Shown in pieces: positions 7,658 to 27,257 of a stretch of 30,600 nucleotides of DNA (positions within the stretch are counted from its first letter, which is position 1; each line of letters starts with the position of its first letter). Position numbers and translations under genes: made by a program. The stretch is from assembly GCA_965367815.1 (NCBI GenBank), contig CBDUKN010000027.1, positions 1-30,600 of the forward strand, read 5' to 3'. The stretch is from an uncultured Thermoprotei archaeon. GTDB lineage: Archaea > Thermoproteota > Thermoprotei > Thermofilales > B15-G2. The notes under the pieces were generated by a model. The model worked only from the letters and a program-made list of their open reading frames with translations. It searched no databases and was not told the DNA's origin.

Positions 7658-10093
7658 ATGATGAATAGAATTACACTCGCATTCATACTAGCTGCAACAT
7701 CTCCTTTCATATTAGTATTTTCGGCTGAAGCCTTTTACTTAACGCTTCTAGTTGCATACATTCTAGCATTCCCGTTCCTATACACGCTACTTAAAGAAAA
7801 ACTAGTTGGGTACGAAATACCAGACTACAAGTACGTAGACTATATTTTCATGAGAAAAATACCTAAAGGAAAAACAATTGAATACGAAGTAGGAATAGTA
7901 CTTAAACTCACTACAACTGCTGGCGCACTTGAGAGAGTAAGCCACCTCAATTTTGCTGAAGAAGCCAATACAGTACTAGACGTTATTACATCTAAGAGCC
8001 CTACTATTGTCATTAAAGGCGGGACTCTAGACTACTACATAGTACTAACTCATAGAAGCAATAATCTACAAGAAGCAGTAGAGGCTCTCAAAAAGAAAGT
8101 AGCTTCGTTGAAAAGAGAACTACTCACATCATCATTCGAAGTAATACCCATTCGCTTCGAAGAATACTTGGAAATTTTTCCGTTTAAAGAAAAGAAAAAG
8201 GACTGGAAAAAAGCTGCACTAGCTGCACTACTGCCCCCCGTACTCTGGTTCATTAAGCTCTACTTCTTCTCAATACTAGCTTTCCTGCTAACGTACCCCG
8301 TCCTAGTAGAATTCATTAAGAAAAGAAATGAGAAGCTATACGATTTCCCGGGAACATGGTACTCTGTCGAAGAAATACACAGTGTAAAGTACACGCGTGC
8401 CGGACTATACATGTACACTCAAGTCATAAGAAATGCTATTTCATCTACTACAGCTGAAAACACGTTCATTGTAATCAAAGTAGAGCCAGCTCAAACAAAA
8501 GAACAAGCTGCACTAGAGAAAAGTGCTCAAAGAAAATACATCATAGGAGATATGTTCAATAAGCCCAAGACAATACTCGAGGCTTTAAGGGAACTAGAGA
8601 GAACACAAAGAAGATACGGGGACATTGAAGAAGCATTACTCAAAGTAAGCATATACACGAACAATAAGACAATAGCGAGGAAAATGAGCTCACTATTAGG
8701 CTTCTCTGTATCACTGCTACCAGTCAAAAGCCCTGTACTAAGCAAACTCTTCTATAAGAAAAGCGTACTAGAATACGACACAGGGCTAAGGTACTGCTAC
8801 ACACTAGATCTAGCATTCTTCTCACCATACCTCTGCAAGAGATACATGTGGGAAAAAGGTATCGTGTTGGGGACAGATGAGGGAGGAAACGTCGTACGCT
8901 TAAACTTAGCTGCACTACCTAATGCGCATGGAATATATGTTGGCGGCTCTGGTACAGGGAAATCGATAATGTTCAAGAATATTATCACTCAGCTATCACT
9001 GTACTATAATGCCAATTTCTGCATATTAGATATTACTGGAGAGTACCGTGATTTCATAGAGCTTTTCGGCGGAATAGTAGTAGACTGCACTAAACCATTC
9101 TTCTGCTTCAGGCACCTCTTGCTAAATCCCATTAAAAGAGAATATTTATTGGATGTGATAGCGGAAGTCTACAGGCTATCAGACATGCACAAAGCTATTT
9201 TACGCAAAATACTGAGCGAATCAAAGTCATTCACAGAAGCTGCGCAGAAACTCCCGCTTATTCTCAATGAGCTTGAAGCACCACTAAGAAGACTCGACGG
9301 TAACGTGCATGTAAGCGAGCTACTATCAAAAAACATTCCCTTCGTGATGTACTTCCGTAGAGAAGAAAGGAGAATAGCTGCACTACAGCTAATGCTACTA
9401 CTAGATGAAATAGAAGACTATTTCATGGCGAAAGGAATAGTACACGAGCCCCGCTTCTTCGTATTCATAGACGAGGCACACAACATACTAGATCGAGTAC
9501 CCGACAGAGTCTTACAGAAAATCAAAGAAAGCAGAAAATGGGGGTTAGCCGTAATCTGCTGTAGCCAAGAAGTAACGGCATTCAAAGAAAGGTTCTATGA
9601 AACAGTATACCACGTTGTAGCCCTGTCCCCGATGGCTAGAGCTCAGTTAAACTTACTTAAATCAAAATTCGACATAAGTTCACACGACGAAATATTCATC
9701 ACTACTGCTAGTCCCCGCGAAAAATGGTTCCCTGAAAAAGCATTGCTATTCATCGTAGGCTTTCTTTACCCTATTAGAGTCTACGTAAAGTTTACTGAGC
9801 TGGCGCTGAGAGAAAACTACACTAGAGCAATAGCAGCTGCACAAAAATACGGTGTTCCAGCTAAACTGCTGGCCGCAAAAATACTTGAAGTAGATGAAAG
9901 AAAGCTTGAAGAAATGTTAGAGAAATGTCAGTTAAGTGAGCTAGAGAAACACGGGCTATTTATTAAAGAAAAACTAACATTTACTCCGCTAGGCGCCGCG
10001 CTAATAGAGTATCGAAAAATTAGACCTAAGATTCTTCACGCATTCCTAAACTCTCTTCAAGTATCTTCAAGTACTCCTCGACACGCGAAATAG
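7658..10093 (+). CDS. VirB4/CedB-like membrane-anchored HerA/FtsK-superfamily ATPase
   Basis: Walker A GGSGTGKS, ILDITGEY, Walker B FIDEAH, ESRKWG...SQ arginine finger; N-terminal TM helices. Start moved to ATG 7658 to avoid overlap with the divergent gene. Confidence 0.88.
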   Translation: MMNRITLAFILAATSPFILVFSAEAFYLTLLVAYILAFPFLYTLLKEKLVGYEIPDYKYVDYIFMRKIPKGKTIEYEVGIVLKLTTTAGALERVSHLNFAEEANTVLDVITSKSPTIVIKGGTLDYYIVLTHRSNNLQEAVEALKKKVASLKRELLTSSFEVIPIRFEEYLEIFPFKEKKKDWKKAALAALLPPVLWFIKLYFFSILAFLLTYPVLVEFIKKRNEKLYDFPGTWYSVEEIHSVKYTRAGLYMYTQVIRNAISSTTAENTFIVIKVEPAQTKEQAALEKSAQRKYIIGDMFNKPKTILEALRELERTQRRYGDIEEALLKVSIYTNNKTIARKMSSLLGFSVSLLPVKSPVLSKLFYKKSVLEYDTGLRYCYTLDLAFFSPYLCKRYMWEKGIVLGTDEGGNVVRLNLAALPNAHGIYVGGSGTGKSIMFKNIITQLSLYYNANFCILDITGEYRDFIELFGGIVVDCTKPFFCFRHLLLNPIKREYLLDVIAEVYRLSDMHKAILRKILSESKSFTEAAQKLPLILNELEAPLRRLDGNVHVSELLSKNIPFVMYFRREERRIAALQLMLLLDEIEDYFMAKGIVHEPRFFVFIDEAHNILDRVPDRVLQKIKESRKWGLAVICCSQEVTAFKERFYETVYHVVALSPMARAQLNLLKSKFDISSHDEIFITTASPREKWFPEKALLFIVGFLYPIRVYVKFTELALRENYTRAIAAAQKYGVPAKLLAAKILEVDERKLEEMLEKCQLSELEKHGLFIKEKLTFTPLGAALIEYRKIRPKILHAFLNSLQVSSSTPRHAK

Positions 10094-13000
10094 CTTCCTC
10101 TATATCGCTTAAAACCTCGTGGAGCTCCTCTAACTTAATTTTCCTGTGTTCTGCTTCTCTAATCAAGCTCTGTACTTCGCTCTTCGCGTCCCTATACTTC
10201 CTCAAGGCGCCTGAGAGAAGCTCCATTTTATCACTAATACTCTTTTTCTCGAGCGCTTCTTCGACAAGCCTATCCGCTTCCTCTGTGAAGCGTGCCGTTG
10301 CATTCAATCTGTGCTCTACGCTACTCAAGAACTCTATTTTATCGCTGAGGTACTCGAAGTTAAGCATACTGAATGCTAAAGAAGCTACTTCTCTAACGAA
10401 AACATCTCTCTCATTAATGTATGCGTAGAGGTAGCTGTACTCGCTTTCACTCTGCATAAAGTAGTCTTCAGCTACAATAGAGTTAAGGAACTTTAATGCT
10501 TTCTCGAAGTCTTCCTCACTGTACTTATGTTTGTAGAGAAGCTCGACTACTTCCTCTAGCTTCGGGGGCTCAGAGAAAAGTGATGCCGTCGCCACAACTG
10601 CCTTAAAGTCCCTTAAATCAATATTGAGCATTTTCATAACAGTCTCCGCGAAATCAGTTACTTTCTCTCTGTCTTCAAGGTACTTTGCTGGAAGCAAGTG
10701 TATTCTATCGAGTGAGAGGTCTAGTTCATCAAGCATTCTAGCGGATCGGGCTATAGCGTTTATTAGTAAGAGTTCTTCGTCAAGTTCGACTCTATTAGCT
10801 TCGCTCCACTCTAGTACCGCTCTAGCGAACTCCCGTTTATCAGATATCATGTACAAGTATCTGGGAGGCTCTACTTCACGAATTAAAAGCGTTGCTGAAA
10901 CAATATTCAAGTACGATAAAGCGTACTGGTAAGCTAACTCTACGTCCCCTAGCTTCAGTGCAGCTCTAATAGCCTCTCTACTCGGTTCATCAGAGTAAGT
11001 TGAGGCAATAAACGCTACGAGGGCTTCTCCGCCACGCTCGAGAAAAACTCTAGCGTAGCTAACTCCACTCAAAACCATTTCTGCCGCGAGAACTTGCGAG
11101 GCTTTCAAGATATTCCTGTCTCCTGTCTGCAGAAACGCCCTATACAGCTCACTTGGATTCACTCCACTTAAACCAGCTTTCTTCAAGTACTTCCGCGCAA
11201 GCCTATCCGCCACCACACGCAAATACGGTAGATCATACTCGACTCTAGAGTAAGGGTCGTGGATAACCTTAAGCAATGCTTTTTTCGCAAAGTAAAGCGC
11301 AGACTTCTCCTCTATCTTCGATACAATAAGACCATAAGTCTTTCTCCTAACTCCGTAGGGGTATTTTTGCATAAAGTCCGCTAGTTTCTCGAGTTTTCTC
11401 GATCGAGTAACATCAGCTATAAGGTAGTAGAGTCCCGCTCTCTTAGAATACCTCGCTATCTTGTCTATTGTGAGCATCGAGAGTGCAGCTAGCTTAGCTA
11501 GTCTACGTGAAGGAAGCTTCTTCTCGTAGAAGTCTTTAAGGAGCTCGTACTTACGCCTAATATCTGCGTAAAGAATGTCACGCAAAGTAGTCTGTGTTGT
11601 CTCAGCTACTTTGCTATAGAACTTTAATCTAATTTTCGCTTTAATTGCTCTAAATAGGAGAGCAATAGGAGAGAGCCTCCGCGTAACTGCTCTAGCAGAA
11701 AAACTAGGTAGTGAAAGAATACTGTAGAAAAGCGTCGATGAGAAAAGACTACTAGTAAAACTCGGCGACCCCAGCATCCCCAGAATAAATATTACCGCTA
11801 GACTCCAGCCAATAAACATCAGCAAGACATTATAGAGTAGCTTGAATATACTGCCGAAAAACTCAATAAATCCTCTATACTGCATAATTTCACTAAAGTA
11901 CTGCCAGTAGTAATTGTAGTAGTACCATGCTGTGGCATTCCAAGGAATCTTCGCTCTAGGCACGATAGTCACTTCAACAACTACAAAATCTGTAGAGTTC
12001 ACAGTACCGTTCTGCGTCAACACAATATGTACTAGGTGACCGGGCGGCTGCACGCAAAAGAACTTAGGCTTATGTGCGTCAAGGAAATCTAGTAGCTCTT
12101 CATAGGACTCTGGTAGCTTAAAGCAAGTACGGTTCAAGTAAGCGTACGAAAAAGTACGGTTAAACCAAAGAACATAGTTCTTGTAGAGTTCTCTAAAGAA
12201 GCTTTCACCTGTCTGAGTAATATTTGTTGCAGACTCTACCCTAACTATATTATATGATATAGTTAAATTGCAGCTACTTGAACTATACTTCACTTTAATC
12301 AAACAGTCGCCGAAAACCCATATCTTTGCTTCAGTTTCCTCATACACTCTCATAGTAAACCTGTATTTTGCTCGAAGCGGCTTCTTTACTATAAGCGGAT
12401 CTATACACGTACAAAGACCCATACGCTTAACTTTACCGAAAGTAAACGCGTACACACCTGTCTCATTGTATAGTATATGAATACTTCTCACAACTACGCG
12501 GACACGCGTATACGGTCCACGATACACCAAGTCTCCATCCGTAACAGCATTAATGCCTGGTGAAGCCCCGGGTAGAATTAAGCCTAAGCCTCCTCTTACC
12601 CTAAAACAACGCTTTTTAACAGTAAAGTTATACCACATGAAGACAACTCTCTCGACACAGTAGCTACCTTCGGGCAAGACGACAAGACGCTTACCGTAGC
12701 CATTAAGCTGCACAACAAAGTAGCCCGTGTGATTCGCTATTATAGGCGGACAATAGTAACATGAAGTATTGCAACACGAAGTATTAAAACACGGCATACA
12801 TACACTCGTATTGAATTTCAAAACGACCAAAGCGTAAGGTAGAGGCTCTCCGCTTTCTGACACAACTTCAATTAAAGCCACGCCCCACGTCTGCGGAACC
12901 TCTATTTTAGGAACTCTGAGCTTGTATTCAGTTAAACTGTAGTTTATTGTATAAGGTAAAATGTACACGAATATTATTGTAAGCGAGAGAAACAGAAGAC

Positions 13001-13577: not shown

Positions 13578-14486
13578 TTATATACCAAGTCTAGCGCCGG
13601 GCCCACCGAGAGCACGGGCAACCGCTATACACAGTGCTCCCGCTACACTAAATCCAAGTATGGTGCCGACAGAAACGAAGTATACTTCGAAAGTAGCTCT
13701 AGCCATTTTACCCGCTATATCCGTTATGAAAGCCCCTGTATTAAGTGGATTCGATAAAAGGTTTTTTAGAGTATCGAGACTCAAGCGTAGCTGAGGAACA
13801 TTAGCTACATCTGGATTAGCTAAAGCCCTGCCAGCGTAGTAGCTCCAAATATATAATGCTGGACCATAGACAAGAACAATAGAGTAGAGTACTGCCCCGA
13901 TACTCCTTAAGCGCATAAAGTCAATAGGCACTAGTGCCGAGCCAATGATAAGGCATATTTCATAGTACTGTGCAAGAATAACTGCTACTACATATGCTGT
14001 AAACAAAATCCAGTAAGAGTATCTCAGGATTGTTTCCCACGGCGAACAAGCCGCGTCAACAACGTTTCCCAAAGGACTAGCTATTATTGAAGCATACAAG
14101 GTTGCAGTAACGCTTGCTTTCCACAACATCCAGTCTGCGCACTTCTGCATGAGTTTAAGAAAGTTCTTGGATACTTCAGTGAGTCTTTGCCACGCAAAAA
14201 CAATCGATGACTCGAAACTATATGCAGAGCGTTCTGTAGCATTCACTAAGTATTTCTTAACATTCGGTAAAGTAGCATTAGATACAGGAACTTTAAGTTC
14301 TCTGCAAAGTGATGTAAAAATTTTATCTGCAATATTTAACGCGATAGTGGGTACTGCTACAGCACCAGCAGTCTTTACCGCATTCACCAAGTACTCTTGC
14401 GCCCTAGTATAGTTCCCGAGGATATAGTATGCGATAGCTCCCGCAAGCCAGATGGTGATAACTGCTACAGCGAGCGTTACTATCAT
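13578..14486 (-). CDS. CedA/VirB6-like polytopic membrane protein
   Basis: 302 aa with 5-6 TM helices; IGSALVPIDFMRLRSIGAVLYSIVLVYGP motif; lies next to the pilin and VirB4 genes. Confidence 0.7.
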   Translation of the reverse strand: MIVTLAVAVITIWLAGAIAYYILGNYTRAQEYLVNAVKTAGAVAVPTIALNIADKIFTSLCRELKVPVSNATLPNVKKYLVNATERSAYSFESSIVFAWQRLTEVSKNFLKLMQKCADWMLWKASVTATLYASIIASPLGNVVDAACSPWETILRYSYWILFTAYVVAVILAQYYEICLIIGSALVPIDFMRLRSIGAVLYSIVLVYGPALYIWSYYAGRALANPDVANVPQLRLSLDTLKNLLSNPLNTGAFITDIAGKMARATFEVYFVSVGTILGFSVAGALCIAVARALGGPGARLGI

Positions 14487-14848
14487 CCCTTACCACCTGT
14501 AATTTGCTGTATCTGTTGCCAAGCGTATGCTAGTGCTCCGTTAACAGTATTCTTTACTCCCACTGCTATTATCTTGAAAAATTGGGAGACTGGGTCAGTA
14601 TTCTGAATGTTTTCCGCGAAATATCCTGCCGCGTATAAGGCGAGTGCAACGATTCCAAGTATGAAGAAAAGCTTCTCTAGAGCACTCATCGCAAATGAAT
14701 GCTGTCCTCCTATTATTCTCCATATAAAAATGCAGAGCTTGTATATAGCGAAAGCAGCCAGTATTATTATGATGATGCCAAATATATGTTGGCCAGTTAT
14801 TATCAACTCTTTTATGAAATTCACTATTACATCGATTATTCCCTGCAC
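14483..14848 (-). CDS. VirB2/CedA1/TedC-like conjugative pilin
   Basis: About 120 aa, two hydrophobic helices separated by a short GGQH loop; 4-bp overlap with the cedA-like gene. GTG 14848 preferred over TTG 14899. Confidence 0.6.
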   Translation of the reverse strand: MQGIIDVIVNFIKELIITGQHIFGIIIIILAAFAIYKLCIFIWRIIGGQHSFAMSALEKLFFILGIVALALYAAGYFAENIQNTDPVSQFFKIIAVGVKNTVNGALAYAWQQIQQITGGKG

Positions 14849-14933
14849 ATTAATTATTCCACTAAAGTATATTATATTATTTTCTTTAAGAGAAGTCAAG
14901 AAAAAATATAATTTATGCCGACACTAAGATACT

Positions 14934-15434
14934 GTGAAATCCGCGCTACTACCATCGAAAAAGATATTCGAGTACATAGTATTTCAAATAGTAGCTTCCG
15001 TTTTTTCATTCATGTCGCTCATTTCACTAGCATTAGCTAAGCCACTTATGATCATACTAGCTTTCACACTAGCCTTAATCTACATTAAATTAAACCATAA
15101 ACTAAACATACTCAAGCTAATAGCGCTAGTAGCACTAGCACTAATCTTCGCCATCACCTGCGGGCCAGAACTAGTCTTCATAGTATTTGCTTACGCTGCT
15201 TTAGCATTCACAGTACTCAACTGCGAGTACTTTACTAAAAGAAGCTTCACTATAGCACTTGCACTATCACTTCTATTCTTTACGCAAACTTACTTCAACA
15301 TAAAAGAAACTGCTCCGCAAACACCTCTAGGAGTTCAAGAAAATACAGCAATAGCAGTAGCAGCAATATTCGCGACAATAGTCTTTTCACTAGCACTACT
15401 AGCAAAAATAGAGCTATTCACAGAGAAAAAATAA
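14934..15434 (+). CDS. Very hydrophobic multi-pass membrane protein
   Basis: 166 aa, 5-6 TM helices; divergent from the pilin gene. Confidence 0.7.
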   Translation: MKSALLPSKKIFEYIVFQIVASVFSFMSLISLALAKPLMIILAFTLALIYIKLNHKLNILKLIALVALALIFAITCGPELVFIVFAYAALAFTVLNCEYFTKRSFTIALALSLLFFTQTYFNIKETAPQTPLGVQENTAIAVAAIFATIVFSLALLAKIELFTEKK

Positions 15435-16872: not shown

Positions 16873-17085
16873 TTATTCTTTATTTTGAGTATTCTTTCTT
16901 AATAAATTTTTTCCTTTTTTCGTCAATACTATATACGGTTTATAATCTGTATACTTATGTGATATAATTCTTACTAACCCTTTACTAGTAAGTTTTCTTA
17001 AGATACTCGTATTTAAAGACGTTTTTGCGGGTACTACTTGTTTCCATGCAATGTATTTTAAAAACTCTACTTCTTCATTAGACAT
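16873..17085 (-). CDS. Small winged-helix DNA-binding protein
   Basis: LRKLTSKGLVRI...IVLTKKGK MarR-like wing. Confidence 0.75.
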   Translation of the reverse strand: MSNEEVEFLKYIAWKQVVPAKTSLNTSILRKLTSKGLVRIISHKYTDYKPYIVLTKKGKNLLRKNTQNKE

Positions 17086-17269: not shown

Positions 17270-17755
17270 GTGTCTAAAATAAAAATTAGTGAGGAAGAGT
17301 TTCTTCTCTTTAAGAGAAAAACTCTGGCTAAGGCGCTGATCAGTATTTGTAAGGGAGAGAGGCCGAAGTGTAGGCTAAGTATACTATTTACGTTGATAAA
17401 TATTGGTTTATTGGATAAGGAGTTTAAAGCTACGGTAAAGGGAAGAAAAGTTGCTGAATGTTTTGAAAAAATATTTTCTATAATAGATTCAAATAAGTTT
17501 TATGAAGTTTTTTCAGCAAAGTCTACTATAGAATTTATTTTAAGTCTTTATATTAAATACTATGTTATACTGGAAAAATATTATGGGGTATTCTTGTATA
17601 GGAGGTTATATGAGAGACTGGTGTCTGAAGGAATAGTGAATAGAGTGCGTATTAAAAATGGTGTCTACGCGGTAATTCTCTCGGATAAAGGAGAGAGTAT
17701 AGCTGAGCTAATAGCTGAAATAATCTCAGTAATACGCGGCAGACCTTTACAGTAA
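17270..17755 (+). CDS. Tandem winged-helix protein
   Basis: Two wHTH motifs: LINIGLLD...ATVKGRKVA and LVSEGIVNR...ILSDKGESIA. Confidence 0.75.
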   Translation: MSKIKISEEEFLLFKRKTLAKALISICKGERPKCRLSILFTLINIGLLDKEFKATVKGRKVAECFEKIFSIIDSNKFYEVFSAKSTIEFILSLYIKYYVILEKYYGVFLYRRLYERLVSEGIVNRVRIKNGVYAVILSDKGESIAELIAEIISVIRGRPLQ

Positions 17756-17789: not shown

Positions 17790-18044
17790 ATGCTCGACTT
17801 GTCTAAGCTTGAAGTAAAGGCTCTTGTGTCTCTAGCTCTAAGAGGAGAAGTACTTCCAATATCAGAGCTCAAGAAAATTTGTAGATCGGGAAGAGACTAC
17901 TATATTAGGAAACTTGAGTTAAAGGGTCTTGTAAAAATAGTGAGGCACGAGTACACGGGAGGGTATACTTTTGTAGCTTTATCTAGAAACGGGAAAAAAT
18001 TCGCCAAAGCACTCTTAAATATAGTATCGCAAAGTGCAATGTAG
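17790..18044 (+). CDS. Small winged-helix DNA-binding protein
   Basis: IRKLELKGLVKIVRHEYT...VALSRNGKKFA; paralog of 16873-17085. Confidence 0.8.
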   Translation: MLDLSKLEVKALVSLALRGEVLPISELKKICRSGRDYYIRKLELKGLVKIVRHEYTGGYTFVALSRNGKKFAKALLNIVSQSAM

Positions 18045-18133: not shown

Positions 18134-18685
18134 TTATTTAAGAATTTTTTCAATAGCTTTCTTTATTTCTTCTTCTACTTCTTTTGGATTCCATTCTATT
18201 TTGATTTTTCTTGAGTACTTTCTACCACTCCATCCTAAGATTAAATAGGCTTCTGGTGAAACAGAAAAGCATTTGTGGCATAGCCATGCGTATATCTGTG
18301 TTTGGGTGATGCTGTATTTGTCTGCTATAGAATAGGACTTGAATTCATAGACTTCAACTGGTGTGCTCCTGACAAATTTAATGAGGTCTGGTACACCGTA
18401 GACAATGTATTTCTTTGAATTAACTACGATTTCGGCTGCTAGTGGAAAAGGTAAAGCTACTTCATCTTCCTGGAAAACAACATAAGGGTCCAGACTCCAT
18501 AAGACTTCGTGAGCCTCTCTTCCTACCTTAGCTCCATTAAGTCTTCCATGACTTCTAGGACTGGCAATTATCCTAGCTACTTCTGTGACATGAAAAGCTT
18601 TCTTAAGTCTACGGAGCAATTGTGCTTCACTATATAGCTCTAGTATTTCTTTTATCTTAGTGTATTTACTTAAGTTCTGCATCAT
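18134..18685 (-). CDS. PD-(D/E)XK (RecB/Cas4-like) nuclease without the 4-Cys Fe-S motif
   Basis: GREAH, YGVPDLI, VYEFKS, QTQIYAW motifs. Confidence 0.85.
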   Translation of the reverse strand: MMQNLSKYTKIKEILELYSEAQLLRRLKKAFHVTEVARIIASPRSHGRLNGAKVGREAHEVLWSLDPYVVFQEDEVALPFPLAAEIVVNSKKYIVYGVPDLIKFVRSTPVEVYEFKSYSIADKYSITQTQIYAWLCHKCFSVSPEAYLILGWSGRKYSRKIKIEWNPKEVEEEIKKAIEKILK

Positions 18686-19655
18686 GTAACCCGTCTTCTT
18701 TTATTACAAAAGCCACAGGAGTAGGGGGGATTCTCGGGGAGTCAAAGCACTCTAGTATCCTTAAGTTTCCTTTACTTTTTCTAATAAAGAATCTGTGGTT
18801 AAAGTGGTGTGCGACTATGTGTCCTCCACAGGCTTTCACAGTCGGCCCGAAGAAAACCCCGGGGTTTGCGAGAACCTGATTTGTCGCCACAATAGCTACT
18901 CCAAATGTTTTCTGGATCTTATCTAGTTCATTTAAAATAAAGTTAAGGTCTTGTTGTCTCTCGGCAAGCTTTCCTCGACCCCTATACTCGGCTCTATGAA
19001 GCTTAATAACTGAGTCAAGTACCACTAGCTTGACTTTTTCTCTCAAAACTATGTCGGGTAGCTCGTTTTGAACAAAGAAACGCAAATCTGATACCTTAAT
19101 TGGCTTAACTAAAATAATGTTCTTTAGTGCTTCTTTAGGCTCTAAGCCAAAACGCTCAGCAATTCTCGCTACTCTACTGGGCGTAAATGTTCCTTCAGTA
19201 TCAATATACACTGCTTTAGCCTGCAGACCTCCTCTATCGAGCGGAAGCTGCACTGTTACACATAGCTGGTGACATATCTGAGTCTTACCTGCACCATACT
19301 CGCCTACAAGCTCATGCGACTCAGAAACTTTTACCCCTCCTCCCAAAAGCTCGTCTAAAGCCTTAACTCCTGTCGTAAAACACTCTAGCTCATCGAATAC
19401 TTGACTATACTCTAGTGCCGACTGAATATGGCTATAGCCATGCTCATACATCATCTTCCTTGCCAACGCCACTAGTCTAGCAGCTGTATCTTCACCGAAC
19501 CCTAAGTCTACGAGGTCATGTTCGTTAAAGAGGAAAAGCTTTCTAATATCATAGATGCCTGCTTTCTTTAACCTAGTTATAGTAGTAGACTTTACCCCGT
19601 ATTCTTTAAGCACTTCAACAGGAATTTCTTCCATCAAAAATAATTCAATAAACAA
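18666..19655 (-). CDS. radA: RadA/Rad51-family recombinase
   Basis: N-terminal HhH domain, TTGVKALDELLGGG, Walker A GEYGAGKT, QICHQLCVTVQLP, YIDTEGTF, LVVLDS, RAEYRGRGKLAERQQ, TNQV. Confidence 0.95.
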   Translation of the reverse strand: MFIELFLMEEIPVEVLKEYGVKSTTITRLKKAGIYDIRKLFLFNEHDLVDLGFGEDTAARLVALARKMMYEHGYSHIQSALEYSQVFDELECFTTGVKALDELLGGGVKVSESHELVGEYGAGKTQICHQLCVTVQLPLDRGGLQAKAVYIDTEGTFTPSRVARIAERFGLEPKEALKNIILVKPIKVSDLRFFVQNELPDIVLREKVKLVVLDSVIKLHRAEYRGRGKLAERQQDLNFILNELDKIQKTFGVAIVATNQVLANPGVFFGPTVKACGGHIVAHHFNHRFFIRKSKGNLRILECFDSPRIPPTPVAFVIKEDGLHDAELK

Positions 19656-19666: not shown

Positions 19667-20182
19667 TTATGGAAAGACTTGAACGAATTCTCTTCTCTCT
19701 TTAAGTTCTTCGTAGAGTCTCTTGTCTTCTGTAACTAGTATTATAGGAATCTTATACGTATACGCTATTCTAATGAGAATGTAGAGAGAGTATTCTAGTC
19801 CCTCGACTTCATTTCTAGTAAAGCGGTCGGGCTCGCCTATTAGCACTGGCTTCCTCACTTTATCGAGTTTCCTTGGAACTTCGAGTAGAAGATACTTTAA
19901 GTACTCTTCATCAAGTAGCTCTGGAATCTCCACAGGCTTAGGCTCAACTATGGGTTCGACTAGAGAATATATGAGGTTTAAGCCGTGTGGAAGATAAATT
20001 TCTTCTACGCCTATACTACATACAGCTATAAGAGGCAAAGACTTGTCCTCGAAGTCTTCTACACGCTTCTTAAGCCTATATGCTTCTTCGAGAGAAACAT
20101 TGAATAATGATGCTATTTCTTCTACTGCGAGAACCTTAATGTGTCTTTTACTGAGCTTTTCTAATTCAAGTCTAAGACTCAT
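19667..20182 (-). CDS. Hypothetical protein, probable degenerate RadA paralog (no Walker A)
   Basis: N-terminal HhH-like VEEIASLFNVSLEEAYRLKKRV and C-terminal LIRIAYTYKIPIILVT, like the RecA-fold LxxLAxxxxIxVxxT segment. Confidence 0.5.
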   Translation of the reverse strand: MSLRLELEKLSKRHIKVLAVEEIASLFNVSLEEAYRLKKRVEDFEDKSLPLIAVCSIGVEEIYLPHGLNLIYSLVEPIVEPKPVEIPELLDEEYLKYLLLEVPRKLDKVRKPVLIGEPDRFTRNEVEGLEYSLYILIRIAYTYKIPIILVTEDKRLYEELKERREFVQVFP

Positions 20183-21013: not shown

Positions 21014-21447
21014 TCCTTTATCACCTTTAGTCTCTTCTTGAATTGACGGTACAAAATTACTGCAGCTATATGGGTGCATACTCTTTTTTTACGTAGATAG
21101 CCGTAGGCTCTGAAAAAACAGTCACAAATATACCTGTTTTCATGTTCATCGTAGACAACAATGTAGGAGTCGTAGAAGTCTCCTAATTCAGGTAGTCCTA
21201 TGATTATCCACTTATTTTCACTAACCTGTTTTACTCCAAATAAGAAGCGATACACTGCTCTAGTATACCATGATATACTTTTGTATGGAAACTTTCTTTT
21301 CAGGTATTCTACTGCCTCATATATAACTAATGCTTCCTCGAAACTTATTCCTACTTCTTCAATTACTTCTGATACTATTTTTCCTCGAGCAAGTATTCGA
21401 GCAGCTTTAAGAAGTCTCCTACGTTTAGGCTTGAGAAGAAACTTCAC
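21010..21447 (-). CDS. SWIM zinc-finger protein
   Basis: YICDCF-x-CTHIAA, matching CxC...CxHxxA. Confidence 0.85.
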   Translation of the reverse strand: MKFLLKPKRRRLLKAARILARGKIVSEVIEEVGISFEEALVIYEAVEYLKRKFPYKSISWYTRAVYRFLFGVKQVSENKWIIIGLPELGDFYDSYIVVYDEHENRYICDCFFRAYGYLRKKRVCTHIAAVILYRQFKKRLKVIKE

Positions 21448-22394
21448 TTAATCACCTTTAAGCCTTTGAGAGTTAGAGTAATGCATACTTCTGTTGGTGT
21501 AGGTATTTCTTTAATGAAACCGTACTTCACTAACTTAATGTAGGCTTCAATAGGGTTTTTACATATTTCTGCAAGAGTTCTTAGAACAAATTCTTTCCTA
21601 AAGCCAATGCTTCTCTCCGCGAGAAAATCAAGTTTCTCTTTAATACCGTCAGCCTTGTCACCAAAAATAACCTTGAGATAATCTATTTTCTTTGGTTGAG
21701 CTGGTATAGGCTTGACTTTCTCTGGCTTAATATCCCACTCTACTTTATTAGAATGCCCTAGTAGCTTCGAGTACTTTAAGCCTAAAGAAAGCTTCTGTGA
21801 AGGCGGTATGTTTAGTTCTCTGCGTATAAGCTGCATTAGTGGGGCTACATCTAAGCCTATGTAAACTGCATTAGCTGAATTAAGCAAAAATCTAGTCGTG
21901 TTGTCTATTGAAGAAATAGAGACCACTACATTGAAGCCTGAGCGCTCAAGTACATCAACTACTTTGAGTAGTAGCTTGTAGTCGAATGTCTGATTATACT
22001 CTACGACAACGCTTAAGCCCGACTTAATTTCTTCTTTTTGTGTTTCTTTAAGTGTAATTAGGCTGAGTAACGCTACTAGACTGACGTTACTGTACATTGG
22101 TATGATAGCGAATGCGGGGTTTTCGGCGCTAAAAAAGCATGCAATATTCTCTAAAATAGAGGAAACAGGGTCTGGGTAGAAGGCCGCGTACTCTAGTACA
22201 CTACAGTACTTTTTAGGTACTTCGATTGCGTGAAGCTGCTGTGCTGTAGTCTGTGTGATAATCTTGTCTGCAAGAAGGGCTTCTATAAAAAGCGAGGAAT
22301 AAGCGGAGGGAATATTGAAGAAGGTGTGTTCAAACTGTTCCCCCACGTAGAGCATATCTCTAGGATAATATCTCTTGGATATCGAGACTTCCAC
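21444..22394 (-). CDS. Hypothetical protein with C-terminal winged helix
   Basis: 316 aa; KLVKYGFIKE...ITLTLKGLK; coupled to the SWIM gene. Confidence 0.7.
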   Translation of the reverse strand: MEVSISKRYYPRDMLYVGEQFEHTFFNIPSAYSSLFIEALLADKIITQTTAQQLHAIEVPKKYCSVLEYAAFYPDPVSSILENIACFFSAENPAFAIIPMYSNVSLVALLSLITLKETQKEEIKSGLSVVVEYNQTFDYKLLLKVVDVLERSGFNVVVSISSIDNTTRFLLNSANAVYIGLDVAPLMQLIRRELNIPPSQKLSLGLKYSKLLGHSNKVEWDIKPEKVKPIPAQPKKIDYLKVIFGDKADGIKEKLDFLAERSIGFRKEFVLRTLAEICKNPIEAYIKLVKYGFIKEIPTPTEVCITLTLKGLKVIK

Positions 22395-22425: not shown

Positions 22426-22776
22426 TTACCCTCTCTCAACGAAAGCAGTAGGCGTATTGATTACGACTTCTACCTTCATCAAGGTATTGTTTCCTAGTAT
22501 TCTAAATGTGTAAGCGTAGCCTAGCCTCAGTTTAATAGGATTACCTATAGTATATGTTCTAGTAATAGTTCCATTAGGGAGAATTAATGTAACTCTGATG
22601 AACGCGTTTGTTCTAATGGACTCGCCAGCTGCCAGTAGATCTGCGGCTTGTTCCGCCAACACCCACGCATGTATACTGTAGTTTTCGACACGAGCCTTAG
22701 CGTTAGCGTAAACATACATTGTCGCTAAGAAAAAGAGACAGAAGGCGATTATTACTGCAAGCATATCGAATTTCAT
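22426..22776 (-). CDS. Putative minor pilin / pilus-associated protein
   Basis: N-terminal hydrophobic helix followed by a beta-rich domain with NxS/T sequons; directly after the TadC-like gene. Confidence 0.55.
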   Translation of the reverse strand: MKFDMLAVIIAFCLFFLATMYVYANAKARVENYSIHAWVLAEQAADLLAAGESIRTNAFIRVTLILPNGTITRTYTIGNPIKLRLGYAYTFRILGNNTLMKVEVVINTPTAFVERG

Positions 22777-22779: not shown

Positions 22780-24033
22780 CTACACCTTCAATTTGGGTAT
22801 TAGCTGTGGAGCAATATAGTTCAGCGTAATATTGTATATGAGTGCTGATACCAGTAAGAACAATGGTAAGTACATGAGTATATAGGAGGGATTGGCGTCT
22901 CTGAAACAAGTTGCTATAAGTGCGAGTGAAGCCGAAATAGTCGTTAGCGAGAAATCGATAATAGTTCTTATAGTAGCTAAATTTTCTCGGGTAGGGAACT
23001 CGAAGCCGGAGCGCTTCATAATATCTCCGAGCGAGTACCCTAGCTCACTAAGATTCTCTAGAGTAGCATAGGATATAGCGTACATTGATGCAGCTAAAGC
23101 AGTCATAAAGAGACAGGCACACAGGATCACTAGTCCTCTTTTCCTCATACTGAGGAAAAGTCTCCTGTACTCTTTAACGAAGTTCGTTAACTTGGACACG
23201 CAGTCAAAGTACTTTTCGCCACCGCTCTTCAGTAGAATAAAGAGTGCCGCTAAGGCGTATCTTATGAAGCCCCAGAATTCATTTGAGAGCAGTTTACGGG
23301 GATTCCTTATACCCGCCAACGTAATATCCTTTGTCGTACACATTACTGAGAGAATGTCTTCTCCTTTCTTGAGAGAATCAAGTAGTTTCTCCTGATACCT
23401 GAACAATATTAATGCTGACGGAATAGTAGCGATGAACAGTGCTACTGTAGCGCTGTGTAGAATAAAGTAGAGAGGTACGGCTAGAGCGAGAGGTGCTAAA
23501 GCATATGCTAGGATTCTATTTTCTACTGGGAGATGTAGGTGTTGTGGTATAAGAATTACTGTGATAAGAGAACCTATAGCGGCGAAGAGCATTGAGAGAA
23601 CTGTAACTATAATTCCTGACTCCGGTGCAGTAAACGCGTAGATAAGATTCAGTACTAGCGGAAACAGAATAGCTACTGTGACAACAGCAGTTAAAACAAA
23701 GCCAGCTGTCCACGAAGTACTCTCAACTTTTTCTCTTAAGTCGTCGAGAAACCTTGACGCAAGAAAATTCAAGTTCTCTCTGCTACCCGTACTAGTGCTA
23801 ATCCACGCCTCCTTATATAACTCAATAAACTCCTTCGAGCAACCCTTGCGTTTCAAAACTGTATCCACAGTGCTTGGCCTTATAGGGTGGTCTGGTATCC
23901 ACTTTAGGCCAAGAAGATTTCTTAGCTCAATGAGCGTGGAAAGAGGCGGTAAGGGAGACGAGGAAATGGCTATGCTTAAGAAGTACGCTGATATCTTACT
24001 CTCAGACCCTACCTTAAACTTCTCGAATACCAC
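22780..24033 (-). CDS. Type IV pilus membrane platform protein (TadC/ArlJ/UpsF-like)
   Basis: Two repeats of a cytoplasmic helical segment (STSTGS..., KSGG...) followed by TM bundles; lies between pilin genes. Confidence 0.7.
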   Translation of the reverse strand: MVFEKFKVGSESKISAYFLSIAISSSPLPPLSTLIELRNLLGLKWIPDHPIRPSTVDTVLKRKGCSKEFIELYKEAWISTSTGSRENLNFLASRFLDDLREKVESTSWTAGFVLTAVVTVAILFPLVLNLIYAFTAPESGIIVTVLSMLFAAIGSLITVILIPQHLHLPVENRILAYALAPLALAVPLYFILHSATVALFIATIPSALILFRYQEKLLDSLKKGEDILSVMCTTKDITLAGIRNPRKLLSNEFWGFIRYALAALFILLKSGGEKYFDCVSKLTNFVKEYRRLFLSMRKRGLVILCACLFMTALAASMYAISYATLENLSELGYSLGDIMKRSGFEFPTRENLATIRTIIDFSLTTISASLALIATCFRDANPSYILMYLPLFLLVSALIYNITLNYIAPQLIPKLKV

Positions 24034-24064
24034 AAAAAAATATAAAAGAAGAATATTAAATTAT

Positions 24065-24547
24065 TTATCCCCGCTCAACAGTAGCACTGAAAGAAATCGC
24101 TTCATGGCCCGGTAATGTTATCTGACCTTTGACAACGTTAGCGTTCCCTGGGTCATATCCGCCGCCGAGAGTCAATTCTATGGTCGCCGTACCGCCGTTT
24201 GCTGGTATTGTTATGTTTGTTGGATCAACATCGGTAATTGTTACGATGCCTTTATTGAAAATTGTGAGATGAATATTTCCTGTTGTAAGTGTTGTAGTAT
24301 AAGCACCACCTCCCGAGTTTTGTATGTTGATAGTTAAGTGCCATGTTCCAGTATCGTCCGCCCACAGCCACGCTTGTACTACTGATAACCGCGGCTTTTT
24401 TATGCTAGAGTTAATGAAGCCAAAAACCCACCAGAAGAGAATAAATGTTGCCGCAATACCTAAGATTATTATTAAAATTAGTACTAGTACTGTAGAAACT
24501 CCTTTATTGTTGAGCGCTAGTTTTTTAATTATTTTCTTTCTCATCAA
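24065..24547 (-). CDS. Archaeal type IV pilin
   Basis: Class III signal peptide KKLALNNKG|VSTVLVLILIIILGIAAT; LTINIQNSG motif. Confidence 0.88.
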   Translation of the reverse strand: MMRKKIIKKLALNNKGVSTVLVLILIIILGIAATFILFWWVFGFINSSIKKPRLSVVQAWLWADDTGTWHLTINIQNSGGGAYTTTLTTGNIHLTIFNKGIVTITDVDPTNITIPANGGTATIELTLGGGYDPGNANVVKGQITLPGHEAISFSATVERG

Positions 24548-24628
24548 GTGTTATTTCCATGAGAAACTATATAAGGTTTACGTAAATGATTTAGCGTAAA
24601 AGATATATCATAAGTTTCGATAAATAAA

Positions 24629-25483
24629 GTGATTGAAATGACTAAAGTTATTGGATTAACAAGTGGTCCTAGAGGAGGAGTTGGCAAGACACTTATTTCT
24701 AGTGTGGTTTCTGTATTGATGAATCTTCGTGAAATTCCTACGCTTCTTGTTGACGTGGGAGGAGGAGCGACAACTGTATTTCAAGTGACATTCAGAAAAA
24801 AGACTATTACACCGCCATATATCCACGATTTCGCTGTAAAAGAAAAAGTCGACCTCGGAGACTATATTTGTTCAGGGAATATTAGCGAAATTTTTGGGCA
24901 GAAGAAAGAAGAAAAGAAAAGGAGATTCTTTGGTAGAAAGAAAAGAGAAGAAAAGAAGGAGAAAGAAATAATGACGTACCTAATGCCGTGTCAATTCGGG
25001 CGACCACTGCAGCCTAATGAAATACCTCTTTTTGTAAGTAAAATGCCTCTACTTTACCAGTTCTTTGAAGCACTTATAATAGATTTTCCAGCAATGGCTC
25101 ACATAGAGCCGTGGAAACCACTAATAGATTCCCTCGACTTGCAGCTAATAGTAGTTACTCCAGACTTGTCGACAGTATATGATGTACTTAACGGCAGCAT
25201 TCTAACCGACAACACAGTGTTTATAGTAAATAAGTTTAATGAAAGCGACGAGCATATTAGCATTTTAAAGCTACTTCGCGAAGAATTCGGTAGAGAAATT
25301 TTCGTTATTCCAGCTGACCCATATTTAGCTAATTTTGCTCAATACGGACTCTTTGCTGTCCCAGAGCCAAAAGGAAAAAGTGTTTCATTTAATGAAATAG
25401 TGAATAAGAGAAAGAAGCCTGATGCCGGGCGGGCATTATTCGACTTAACTTTCTTTATTATAGACTTTATCTCCAGTGAGTAA
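24629..25483 (+). CDS. MinD/ParA-family ATPase (pilus-associated)
   Basis: Deviant Walker A SGPRGGVGKT, LLVDV, IIDFPA, VVTPD, VNK, IPAD. Confidence 0.85.
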   Translation: MIEMTKVIGLTSGPRGGVGKTLISSVVSVLMNLREIPTLLVDVGGGATTVFQVTFRKKTITPPYIHDFAVKEKVDLGDYICSGNISEIFGQKKEEKKRRFFGRKKREEKKEKEIMTYLMPCQFGRPLQPNEIPLFVSKMPLLYQFFEALIIDFPAMAHIEPWKPLIDSLDLQLIVVTPDLSTVYDVLNGSILTDNTVFIVNKFNESDEHISILKLLREEFGREIFVIPADPYLANFAQYGLFAVPEPKGKSVSFNEIVNKRKKPDAGRALFDLTFFIIDFISSE

Positions 25484-25515
25484 TTTTATTAACTAGAGAA
25501 TAATTTAATATTATC

Positions 25516-25905
25516 GTGGAGAGAGGAAAATTACCTTTATCTATCTTAAAGAAAAAGAAGGAAGAAGAAAAACAAGTATGGCCTGAAGTAAAGTTTCCTA
25601 CTCCTTTAAAACCACCCGAGGAAAAACCCTCACCTCCTCCACCACCTTTATCTCCTCCACCCGAAGTAGCTACTCCGCCCACTACGCCTCCTTCTATGCT
25701 TACAGCAGAAGACGTGGTCGCAGTTATTAAAGACCTAGGTGTAGCAGACCAAGTTAAGAAGAGATATGATGAACTTTCAGCAGAAGTCGCTCAGCTTCAG
25801 AAAGAAATAGACGAACTGAAAAAACAGTTAGCTGAGAGGGAAGAGAGATTAAAAGAGCTTTTAGATAAGAAAAATAGATTTGAAGCAGTAATGCGCCACC
25901 TATAA
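25516..25905 (+). CDS. Proline-rich linker plus coiled-coil protein
   Basis: PSPPPPPLSPPPEVATPP followed by a heptad LSAEVAQLQKEIDELKKQL segment. Confidence 0.8.
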   Translation: MERGKLPLSILKKKKEEEKQVWPEVKFPTPLKPPEEKPSPPPPPLSPPPEVATPPTTPPSMLTAEDVVAVIKDLGVADQVKKRYDELSAEVAQLQKEIDELKKQLAEREERLKELLDKKNRFEAVMRHL

Positions 25906-25907
25906 CT

Positions 25908-27257
25908 ATGACGAGGTTTTTCGAAGAATTTTTGAGAGAAGCAGAGAAGAGGGAAAGTAGGAGAAAGAAAGAGCAGAAAAAGAAAACGGAGACAAGAGAA
26001 GAGAAAGTAAAGAAGGTGAGGAGGAAAATTAAGAAAAAGCCTATAGCTTCAAGAAAACTTGAAGTAAAGCTTCCAGCTAAACCTAAGCTAAGTTTTCTTA
26101 AAAGAAAAAAGTCTGTACCTAAGCCTCAGCTAATACAGCAGCAGTATAAGTACGACTATGTTGAGCGCTGCAATGGATACACGTATGCTTTCGATCTCAT
26201 GAATAGATTACTCTACGTGTGGATAGGGAAAGATAGAAGAGAAATAGAGGAGAGCACATGGGGTTGTCTAGAAGCATTAAGAAAGTTAGCGACTATAAGC
26301 GAGATTCATGTAGTCGGAGACTACGTCTCAGTTCTCGACGACCGTTTCGGGCAGTTTACAGTACGCTTTGCTGACTACAAGTTCACTAAAGAGGAAGCAG
26401 ACTTTACTGTAAACAACATAGCTATAGCAGCTAAACTACACTTAACTGAAAGAACCCCCGTTGTAGTAGGAGACCTTGAGGGTTTCCGTGTTCAGTGTAA
26501 GAAAGACCTTGTAGGCAAGACTACGCAGCTAGTAGCAGTGCGTTTGAGAAAAATACCAGACTTAGTCGAGCTTCTGAGAGAAAGAGTTGCAGCTAAACTA
26601 CTTACATGTGTACTTACACGCCTTCCTACTGTCTTTATTGGTGAGCCGGGTAGCGGTAAAACTACTGCGCTTAACTCTACTTTACTGAAACTTCTAGCCA
26701 TATTCCCTAAGCTAAATATCAGTGTTGTTGAAACTAGCGCAGAGCTAAGATTCCCTACAGGTTTCTCAGTACACCGTACTGTATGCACTGGCTACATTTC
26801 TACTGAAGAAGCATTGAGAAAAGCGTTCACTACTGAGCGCCCAGATATCCTTGTGCTAGGAGAGCTGACAGACGAAGTCGACATATGGATGAACTTTGTT
26901 AGATCTGGCCAAGCCTGCCTAACTACTTTTCATAGCCCTGACCCCCCGACATTTGTCCGCCACATTTCAATGAAAATGAATGCCTACGCGCTTGACTTCT
27001 TCAAGTTGATAGTGCATTGTTCTAGAACAACTGACAGCCTTGGAAGAAGATACTACCGCATTAATGCAGCATACATTATTGACTCACAGAATAAGCCACA
27101 TTTACTAACAGAGCTAAGTGAAGAAGAGTTCCTTAAAATACTTGAAGAAGACTACGGAGAAAGAACACCAGTAGTCTCTAGCGGAAACAGATTATTCGAT
27201 AAGAAGTCACTATACATGTATATTAAAGCAAATATAAGTAAAACAATAAGTATCTAA
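25908..27257 (+). CDS. Type IV pilus assembly ATPase (TadA/CpaF/UpsE/VirB11-like)
   Basis: Walker A GEPGSGKTT, Asp box VETSAEL, Walker B ERPDILVLGE, His box TTFH; Lys/Glu-rich N-terminus. Confidence 0.9.
   Translation: MTRFFEEFLREAEKRESRRKKEQKKKTETREEKVKKVRRKIKKKPIASRKLEVKLPAKPKLSFLKRKKSVPKPQLIQQQYKYDYVERCNGYTYAFDLMNRLLYVWIGKDRREIEESTWGCLEALRKLATISEIHVVGDYVSVLDDRFGQFTVRFADYKFTKEEADFTVNNIAIAAKLHLTERTPVVVGDLEGFRVQCKKDLVGKTTQLVAVRLRKIPDLVELLRERVAAKLLTCVLTRLPTVFIGEPGSGKTTALNSTLLKLLAIFPKLNISVVETSAELRFPTGFSVHRTVCTGYISTEEALRKAFTTERPDILVLGELTDEVDIWMNFVRSGQACLTTFHSPDPPTFVRHISMKMNAYALDFFKLIVHCSRTTDSLGRRYYRINAAYIIDSQNKPHLLTELSEEEFLKILEEDYGERTPVVSSGNRLFDKKSLYMYIKANISKTISI

Follow-up and report, generated by a model that had tools for sequence, protein, structure and literature searches.

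A Ted-like conduit gathered with pilus, ParB and RadA2-nuclease genes in Thermofilales: probably a domesticated system for DNA exchange

To our knowledge, Ced and Ted represent the only known conjugation machines that have been domesticated for the exchange of chromosomal DNA. For both of them, the production, reception and recombination of the transferred DNA are presented as an open question in the literature (PMC9905601, PMC11823120). This question is raised again by a block of genes at positions 7658-27257 of contig CBDUKN010000027.1 (C27), whose 30,600 bp form the whole window analysed here. In this contig of an archaeon of the order Thermofilales, genes of a conduit resembling a type IV secretion system (T4SS) lie together with a type-IV-pilus-like set, a ParB gene and a RadA-nuclease pair. 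A first-pass annotation of the sequence had read them as one Ced/Ted-like block, and this union is borne out by the synteny conserved in other genomes; the gene classes named in it were all recovered from open reading frames (ORFs), Pfam, NCBIfam and motifs. It is proposed, with a probability of about 0.6, that the block is the Thermofilales form of a Ted/Ced-type domesticated T4SS for DNA exchange, located in a chromosomal supercluster together with companion modules.

The genome that contains the window (G000; 2.45 Mb in 37 contigs, 99.4% complete) was compared with relatives, designated here by other G numbers, with g for genus and f for family; the sample comprised 41 genomes of the order and 120 of the class. 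The conduit genes are homologous to those of TedA and TedB. Profile A1, which represents the Thermofilales family of VirB4-like ATPases, matches TedB of G093, an ATPase of 685 amino acids (aa), at 5.7e-26 and TedB of G114 at 6.9e-28; as a single sequence, the window ATPase has low similarity to the latter (1.6e-10). This protein combines N-terminal transmembrane (TM) helices with intact Walker A (GGSGTGKS) and Walker B (FVFIDEAH) motifs. It is detected by the Pfam families TrwB_AAD_bind (26.4 bits) and DUF87 (23.5 bits), and by the NCBIfam models for VirB4 CD1110 (1.6e-14), CedB (3.9e-10) and CedD (1.8e-7), all of them far under the family cut-offs, and the best solved relative of its family profile is the VirB4 structure 4AG5 (1.4e-12). 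A plasmid collection searched with the ATPase returned one weak bacterial DUF87 match.

The 302-aa polytopic protein belongs to the TedA-like family, represented by profiles A3 and A4. G093, a complete genome of 2,009,313 bp from family f15, contains an ORF with the exact TedC cleavage site quoted in PMC9905601 (A20-V-A/Q-A24, the slash marking the cut), and TedC was recognised by this published motif. The 310-aa ORF just downstream of it, TedA, is matched by A3 at 7.3e-11 (profile positions 7-270), and another TedA-like stretch is present in an ORF of 5058 aa downstream (8.7e-8). Full-length A3 matches were obtained in 42 of the 120 genomes of the class, families f14 and f15 included. The search for homologous proteins with A3 yielded three proteins, and the deeper alignments were therefore assembled from genome loci. 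Foldseek with a model of the TedA-like protein gave no match at E 0.001 or better, and a profile match of A3 in PDB to designed TPR proteins (1.7e-10, profile positions 12-43) was treated as a short-motif artefact. The window thus has two of the three proteins that define a Ted system, a VirB4-like TedB and a polytopic VirB6/CedA-like TedA, the latter encoded beside a gene for a candidate pilin, which would be the third.

A second TedA-like domain was found in the 1173-aa giant membrane protein, so that the two CedA/VirB6-like proteins reported in the first-pass annotation are both accounted for. Profile A4 matches residues 10-249 of the giant at 9.4e-8, and the N-termini (~210 residues) of 12 giant proteins, that of the window included, align with A4 by hhalign with a probability of 97.8% (E 1.1e-12, 193 columns). 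This TedA/VirB6-like polytopic domain (~1-250) is followed by an outer domain rich in Cys and NxS-T, two TM segments near 561-592 and a helical cytoplasmic tail of ~580 aa, for which a language-model look-alike search yielded no usable match. Homologues of the giant follow the TedA-like gene in G004, G005, G008, G009, G012, G014, G020, G025, G028, G030 and G093. A motif in which a TM helix precedes W/Y-x-x-G-x-R-x-E/Q-A is conserved N-terminally in the families of both the 302-aa and the 1173-aa protein.

The remaining member of the conduit would be a 138-aa hydrophobic protein, a candidate TedC/VirB2-like pilin. It belongs to a family of 25 that is always encoded immediately upstream of the TedA-like gene (24 other loci). 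Its model has three helices (pLDDT, the predicted local distance difference test score, 77.5), a signal peptide is seen in its relatives and none is evident in the window copy. The family alignment had no match at E 10 in a PDB profile search, and Foldseek and wider fold searches with the model returned generic helical hairpins only. Across the order, the recurrent unit consists of a pilin-sized hydrophobic protein, a polytopic protein of 260-300 aa, a giant of 805-1711 aa and a VirB4-like ATPase.

In the tree of the VirB4-like proteins, two lineages are distinguished. In clade B, the genes are of full length and occur together with ParB; clade A, to which the split genes of genus g5 belong, has the window copy weakly attached to it (80/74) by the longest branch of the family (2.46). 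The VirB4-like gene of clade A is often divided into a TM part of ~360 aa and an ATPase part of ~350 aa in adjacent ORFs (L020, L021, L050 and L018; G012, G020, G005 and G008), with in-frame stops at the junction in some of the matches.

The conduit is linked to the other modules well beyond the window. In G001, G003, G004, G005, G009, G023, G028, G030 and G032, ParB and the gene for the pilus ATPase or the platform are no more than 3 kb apart. The VirB4-like and ParB genes are 3-25 kb apart in eight of the nine genomes that have both on one contig (G000, G004, G005, G009, G026, G028, G030 and G032), the exception being G023, with 147 kb; the genomes with linked genes span six genera, which are only partly independent of one another. 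The same block in G004, G005 and G009 contains the RadA, 171-aa, Cas4-like and SWIM genes, and additionally HerA-like ATPases and an XPD/Rad3-like helicase. In G000, a CedD-like gene is found on another contig (C2:143787-145319; 6.2e-49, 167 bits against a cut-off of 600), spanning 143787-146779 together with a Rad3/XPD-like helicase, and a second HerA-like/XPD-like pair lies on C35. For Thermofilales, the presence of VirB4 and CedD and the absence of CedB have been reported (Wu et al., PMC11868833). A resident character of the block is suggested by G028 and G030, where ParB is flanked by a GH5 cellulase gene although the two belong to different genera.

Table 1. Features of the window in order of position, with the basis of each assignment.
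Feature	Position	Strand	Basis
Truncated TnpB-like gene	3-761	-	NF040570 1.1e-8; at least 6 paralogues in G000, 50-66% aa identity
TedB/VirB4-like ATPase anchored in the membrane, 811 aa counted from the ATG at 7658	7658-10093	+	Profiles, motifs, TM map
Giant membrane protein, 1173 aa	10026-13547	-	A4 profile, hhalign, TM map
TedA/VirB6-like polytopic membrane protein, 302 aa	13578-14486	-	A3 family; polytopic and beside the candidate pilin gene, as TedA
Hydrophobic three-helix protein, 138 aa, candidate TedC/VirB2-like pilin	14483-14899	-	Position and architecture only
Polytopic membrane protein, 166 aa, unknown	14934-15434	+	5 hydrophobic segments; no family match
101-aa protein with one TM segment	15436-15741	-	C-terminal stretch paralogous to the 70-aa winged helix-turn-helix (wHTH) protein, reciprocal tblastn 63% over 27 aa
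ParB-family protein, 355 aa	15725-16792	-	N-terminal ParB/Srx domain with GERRRKA; Glu/Lys-rich C-terminal half
Small putative winged-helix protein	16873-17085	-	Weak Pfam only
Small putative winged-helix protein	17270-17755	+	Weak Pfam only
Small putative winged-helix protein	17790-18044	+	Weak Pfam only
Cas4-like PD-(D/E)XK nuclease, 183 aa	18134-18685	-	cas4 model 6.7e-8, 32.6 bits, cut-off 65
Full-length RadA of the second Thermofilales clade (RadA2)	18666-19655	-	Rad51 1.7e-71; Walker A GEYGAGKTQ and Walker B LVVLDS intact
171-aa protein, precedes RadA2 in most cassettes	19667-20182	-	Position before clade-2 RadA conserved
wHTH protein of the cassette, 127 aa	20179-20562	-	HTH_45 0.0074; homologues precede the 171-aa gene in many loci
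SWIM zinc-finger protein, 145 aa	21010-21447	-	CxC...CxH motif
316-aa protein, unknown	21444-22394	-	No family; by position only, the counterpart of the ~296-aa gene that precedes SWIM in other cassettes
116-aa protein with N-terminal TM helix, downstream of the platform gene	22426-22776	-	Homologues in G001, G003, G009, G018 and G000 C22
Probable pilus platform (T2SSF/TadC-like), polytopic, 417 aa	22780-24033	-	Look-alike lead; gene context
Type-IV-pilin-like protein, 160 aa	24065-24547	-	Class-III-type signal peptide (KG/VS, slash at the cut); single N-terminal TM
MinD/ParA-like P-loop protein, 284 aa	24629-25483	+	CbiA 30.8 bits, over cut-off
Pro-rich and coiled-coil protein, 129 aa, between the MinD-like and ATPase genes	25516-25905	+	Coiled-coil matches only
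T2SSE-family (FlaI/PilB-like) secretion ATPase, 449 aa	25908-27257	+	T2SSE 39.5 bits, over Pfam cut-off; Walker A GEPGSGKTT
Coiled-coil membrane protein, >1068 aa, cut by the contig end	27396-30599	+	Beyond 7658-27257; TM and coiled coil

Ted was defined in five genera of Thermoproteales (Beltran et al. 2023, PMC9905601), TedD being a later addition to the system (PMC11823120), and its published loci contain HerA-like, MinD/ParA and 'rad50' recombinase genes (PMC9905601). In the Ted locus of G093, a RadA-like gene (matched by the RadA of the window at 3e-43) and a SWIM gene (1.1e-23) are situated between TedB and TedC. The recombinase gene, L159 (G093:C1:718227-719165), is of the RadA/Rad51 family (NF003301, 188.9 bits), and no SMC-like Rad50 was found among the ORFs of the 40-kb Ted stretch. 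Taking into account the presence of the former and the absence of the latter, we infer that the 'rad50' of the Ted papers is the RadA-like gene. A linked recombinase, put forward in the first-pass annotation as something that the systems of Sulfolobales lack, is therefore already a feature of published Ted loci.

The block resembles Ted in its VirB4-like ATPase with an N-terminal TM region, in a polytopic protein of ~270-310 aa that shares one profile with TedA and has a small hydrophobic protein encoded upstream and a giant downstream, and in the MinD/ParA-like, RadA-like and SWIM genes gathered in one locus without relaxase or integrase. Unlike Ted, it comes from the order Thermofilales, has a pilin-like protein that aligns poorly with TedC (hhalign probability 3.9%) and lacks an evident signal peptide in the window copy, has a complete type-IV-pilus-like set and a gene for ParB linked to it, adds a Cas4-like nuclease and a 171-aa protein to its RadA, and leaves the CedD/TedD-like ATPase outside the block.

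The kinship that the first-pass annotation had drawn with both Ced and Ted stands for Ted, through the TedA and TedB profile matches, and does not hold for the Ced equivalogs. The CedB model gives 39 bits against a cut-off of 700, and no CedA, CedA1 or CedA2 model matched any window protein at E 0.01. Similarly, the 160-aa pilin reaches 17.4 bits with the UpsA model (0.0037; cut-off 130) and no UpsE or UpsF model match was obtained, the architecture being that of a type IV pilus in general. In its proposed functioning the block would be like Ced and Ups, where a type IV pilus for contact is combined with a T4SS-derived importer feeding homologous recombination. Its two VirB6-like paralogues can be compared with CedA and CedE, the two VirB6-like paralogues of Ced (PMC11868833). 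Sulfolobales, unlike Thermofilales, keep Ced and Ups in separate loci.

The recombination genes of the window form part of a cassette that is not restricted to the block. RadA2 scores 305.9 bits with NF003301, over the cut-off of 259, and 287 bits with TIGR02236, under its cut-off of 361. The canonical radA of G000 is located on C4; it reaches 316.9 bits with the Rad51 model, as against 241.2 for the window copy, and the two proteins are 46% identical. When 57 RadA-family proteins of the order are placed in a tree, they separate into two clades, each with a support of 100/100. Clade 1 holds the C4 copy, so that the radA of the window, as the first-pass annotation had suggested checking, is not the sole housekeeping copy. 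Clade 2 contains the window copy, which has the longest branch among the full-length proteins (1.62), the copies of other islands, a further gene of G000 (C13:51697-52647) and chromosomal copies, which in g5 are 3-7 kb from the clade-1 gene (for instance, G012:C1:1147512-1151779 and G005:C1:913643-921192). Thermofilales generally have two RadA genes of full length, which belong to two deep clades, as well as shorter RadA-like genes; seven RadA-family matches were counted in G009, and five each in G004 and G011. A further RadA-like gene of G000, apparently split between the end of C13 (69054-69419) and the start of C28 (5-256), was left out of the tree.

The clade-2 radA is nearly always found in one of two arrangements, wHTH-171/191aa-RadA-Cas4-like or 296aa-SWIM-RadA-Cas4-like, and this cassette is present in most Thermofilales genomes, often distant from any T4SS gene. 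No paralogue of the Cas4-like or the 171-aa gene exists in G000, and the window therefore probably contains the organism's own copy of the order-wide cassette. For these reasons, we abandoned the idea, favoured in the first-pass annotation, of an additional RadA serving the island alone. SWIM homologues adjoin RadA2 in G004, G005, G009 and on C13 of G000; the 296-aa protein of G004 has no match in G000.

In the Cas4-like nuclease, D100, E114-x-K116 and Q128-xxx-Y132 are invariant in the four aligned homologues (profile A7), and PDDEXK_1 is detected in two of the four members (best 2.2e-4). It differs from Cas4 in that the four-Cys cluster is absent, with only two Cys (CHKC) near the C-terminus, and in that the score is under the cut-off; against PDB, neither the single sequence nor the profile gave anything below E 0.07. 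With regard to the 171-aa family, jackhmmer recruits RadA2 proteins after the family itself, and hhalign gives a weak match with a probability of 71% (E 3.7e-5) over 55 columns near Walker B. Judging from these alignments, the family is possibly a remnant of the RadA core devoid of P-loop.

Pairs of this kind have precedents: recombination modules are carried on mobile elements, as Exo/Bet in lambda and the Bet/Exo pair in the integrative conjugative elements (ICEs) SXT/R391. The cassette is like these modules in that a 5'-3' nuclease stands beside a strand-exchange or annealing protein and is linked to DNA-transfer genes; it is unlike them in having a full RadA of the Rad51/RecA family with a Cas4-like nuclease, and in being a normal chromosomal feature of the order. 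A description of the Thermofilales supercluster, of the linkage of ParB to pilus genes or of the RadA2-Cas4 cassette was not found in the literature searched, although supplementary tables may list such loci.

The pilus-like set is the second companion module. Its platform protein has no Pfam match; a language-model look-alike search scored it at 0.94-0.95, with T2SSF-bearing clusters in 27 of 30 matches, which is taken as a lead only, and its gene adjoins that of the pilus ATPase in eight relatives. The best solved relatives of the T2SSE ATPase are FlaI (4e-8) and PilB (1.6e-7), and the NCBIfam models for FlaI, TadA and VirB11 all lie near 3e-9. A role for this ATPase as the VirB11 analogue of the conduit was considered and dropped, since its nearest solved relatives are FlaI and PilB and the pilin and platform genes are adjacent; some room for the idea is left by genus g5, where a trio of MinD, small and ATPase genes adjoins the conduit without pilin or platform genes. 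MinD-like homologues head the ATPase operon in G003, G004, G005, G009, G012 and G020, and a small gene occupies the position of the 129-aa protein in G004, G005, G009, G012 and G020. The MinD-like protein of the window has a deviant Walker A, RGG where its relatives have KGG, and a Lys/Glu-rich insert.

In the window's genus, the coiled-coil giant at the right end belongs to the pilus module: it is divergent from the ATPase operon in the window, on C22 of G000 (50% identity) and on C43 of G001. The gene is cut by the right end of C27, and its C22 paralogue likewise ends at a contig edge. A paralogous pilus module with the 116-aa gene, platform, ATPase and divergent coiled-coil giant (28-51% identity) is located on G000 C22:33762-40232. 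In G001, of the same genus, a similar module (C43:1-6070) immediately adjoins a ParB gene, whose product shares 58-61% identity with the ParB of the window.

The ParB protein has both the ParB/Srx domain and the GxxRxxA CTP motif, and its scores are over the cut-offs (ParB_N, PF02195, 59.7 bits against 26.3; TIGR00180, 82.6 bits against 58.45); no ParB HTH (helix-turn-helix) domain match was obtained. The ParB_N family is found in 22 of 40 other Thermofilales, as against 7 of 60 genomes in the Ted-bearing families f14 and f15. The weak Pfam matches of the small winged-helix proteins near it are to DUF6293_C (0.0058), an ArnR1-like WHD (0.00045) and TrmB (0.0053).

Taken as one pathway, these genes may be arranged as follows, by analogy with Ups and Ced of Sulfolobales; every functional step, and the direction of transfer, is conjectural in this scheme. 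The conduit module would comprise the VirB4/TedB-like ATPase, the VirB6/TedA-like channel protein, its giant paralogue with a second TedA-like domain and the small candidate pilin. The contact module would comprise the MinD-like and small coiled-coil proteins, the FlaI/PilB-like ATPase, the platform, the pilins and the large coiled-coil surface protein, and a ParB-family DNA clamp and a recombination cassette (wHTH, 171-aa, RadA2 and Cas4-like, with SWIM) would complete the set. Thus, the type IV pilus would first join the cells, and DNA would then be transported across the envelopes by the Ted-like conduit, with the VirB4-like ATPase as its motor. Incoming ends could be trimmed by the Cas4-like protein acting as a 5'-3' nuclease, after which RadA2 and its small partners would lead to the invasion of the resident chromosome, while DNA and machine might be held or positioned by ParB and the MinD-like ATPase. 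Ced also requires a coupling ATPase of the CedD kind together with an XPD-like helicase, and in G000 both are encoded outside the window.

Several observations weigh against the reading of the block as a domesticated Ted/Ced-type system. The functional pathway rests wholly on the analogy with Ups and Ced. The hhalign comparison of the 138-aa family with a two-sequence TedC alignment does not establish homology to TedC/VirB2. The VirB4-like ATPase and the RadA2 of the window are the fastest-evolving members of their own families, and the protein ParB is patchy, being matched in 21 of the 41 genomes of the order and in three of the eight of g5. The modules are rearranged between genomes, with gene order and orientation differing in every family. 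In g5, the conduit locus and the RadA2 cassette are ~270 kb apart (in G012, 872-877 kb and 1150 kb), so that the linkage is not obligatory, and G001, of the same genus as the window and 85% complete, has no TedB-like or TedA-like match. Finally, the clade-B block of G005 was clearly acquired horizontally, and this is easier to reconcile with a mobile element than with a domesticated system.

It is this last case that lends indirect support to a second explanation, close to an alternative given in the first-pass annotation, according to which the block is, or was recently, an integrase-less ICE, equipped with a mating apparatus, a partition protein and a recombination module of its own, which enters new chromosomes through homologous or illegitimate recombination driven by RadA2 and Cas4, the chromosomal versions being immobilised copies. 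G005 has an insert of 37 kb between an eRF1-family gene and an ArsR-type gene, which in G017, G020, G022 and G023 are separated by 1.6-1.9 kb and in G012 by 5.2 kb. The GC content is 59.9% in the insert, 51.6% in the flanks and 43-49% at four further loci sampled in G005, and one flank is inverted relative to the congeners. The insert holds a second system with all its parts (VirB4-like, TedA-like, giant, pilin-like, ParB, pilus set, RadA2 cassette, HerA-like and XPD-like), which duplicates the conduit and the RadA2 cassette already present in this genome, and its VirB4 groups (98/100) with those of genera g14 and g15, where the one g14 locus measured has a GC content of ~66%. An acquired insert without integrase indicates that some versions of the block move. 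The patchy distribution of ParB and clade-B VirB4 points in the same direction, as do an Orc1/Cdc6 gene at the end of the G009 block and the insertion sequence (IS)/TnpB copy in which the window contig ends. The Orc1/Cdc6 gene (Cdc6_lid 5.2e-18; L070:18137-19270, that is, G009:C13:38137-39270) comes right after the RadA2-Cas4 pair, and the entire 39.9-kb contig of G009 is island-like.

A comparable gene set is known from mobile elements. The ICEs of Thaumarchaeota carry VirB4, VirD4, VirB6, TadC, FlaI/PilT-like ATPases, pilins and ParB, without relaxases (PMC6563490); one Nitrosocaldus ICE has no integrase, and the cargo of one includes a geranylgeranyl reductase (GGR) (PMC6563490, PMC5797428). 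In the available parts of these papers, an inactivated RadA is described in a cryptic element and a RadA-Cas4 cassette is not mentioned for Thaumarchaeal ICEs (PMC6563490, PMC5797428). The block resembles these archaeal ICEs and the Sulfolobus pNOB8-type plasmids in uniting VirB4, VirB6, a TadC-like platform, a FlaI-like ATPase, pilins and ParB on one stretch of 20-65 kb without relaxase. It is unlike the ICEs in that the window contains no integrase, att site, tRNA target, VirD4/TraG-like gene, TFIIB or replication module and has a native composition, with 39.3% GC against 38.6% for the genome. Scans of the window with family libraries and for tRNA and Rfam matches found no integrase, relaxase, tRNA or Rfam family, which agrees with the first-pass annotation, where no relaxase, coupling protein or integrase had been seen. 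No integrase family was found in seven related blocks either (G003, G004, G005, G009, G023, G028 and G030), and at the borders of the G005 island there was no tRNA or Rfam match and no repeat of 13 nucleotides or more. The single-copy Cas4-like and 171-aa genes, by which the cassette looks like the organism's own, likewise argue against a mobile origin of the window, and only one clear acquisition event has been seen. With this evidence, the conjugative-element explanation is a serious one, and yet we hold it to be unlikely.

A broader version of it can be formulated, in which Thermofilales would contain a family of self-transmissible islands without integrase, carrying contact, conduit, DNA-handling and RadA2-Cas4 functions, spreading between genera and inserting by recombination. 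The window would then be a resident member, and Ted and Ced stripped-down domesticated descendants. This scenario appears rather improbable to us.

More improbable still is that functionally separate systems (an adhesion pilus with ParB, a T4SS-like apparatus and a recombination cassette) have been gathered in one variable region without sharing a pathway. Such a view would explain why the modules are apart in many genomes, with the g5 RadA2 cassette 3-7 kb from the canonical radA, why the pilus module appears without T4SS genes on G000 C22 and G001 C43, why conduit loci devoid of ParB and pilins occur in g5, and why order and orientation vary so much. It does not account for the repeated co-location in at least six genera (g1, g2, g4, g5, g14 and g15), given that the chance of lying within 26 kb is ~3% in a genome of 1.6-2 Mb, nor for the RadA-like and SWIM genes inside the Ted locus of another order, and the G005 insertion carried all the modules together. 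The block is not a chance juxtaposition, as the synteny recurs across families of the order.

Outside the block, the left end of C27, which is not circular, lies inside a multi-copy TnpB/IS element, with an exact overlap of 77 nucleotides with a copy on C8. The left 5 kb consist of small ORFs matching no known family, and a 215-aa protein (2192-2839, minus strand) matches the viral family phrog_17844 (4.3e-26), whose function is unknown. Between 5240 and 7567 there is a triad of a GGR-family gene, a 234-aa gene and a Zn-ribbon/HTH gene. It is multi-copy in G000 (C1:152230-154536, with 47-61% identity; C7:30735-32115; C17:11601-12534), and a GGR-family gene adjoins the VirB4-like gene in the g5 loci of G005, G012 and G020. 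A link of this triad to pilus lipids is only a thought.

Returning to the proposal of a domesticated Ted/Ced-type system in a chromosomal supercluster, what the locus adds to Ted is a linked type-IV-pilus set, a ParB gene, a RadA2-Cas4 cassette, the existence of two lineages and one demonstrably transferred block without integrase. With regard to the reception of DNA, the RadA paralogue, the Cas4-like nuclease and their small partners could be the receiving or processing module, the ParB clamp and the MinD-like ATPase could be DNA-handling parts, and the type IV pilus could be the organ of contact, which in Sulfolobales is encoded elsewhere (Ups). Ted-type systems are thereby extended to a second order, in two lineages, one of which has moved horizontally as a 37-kb block without integrase, and this bears on whether the domestication of conjugation machines is a one-way process.

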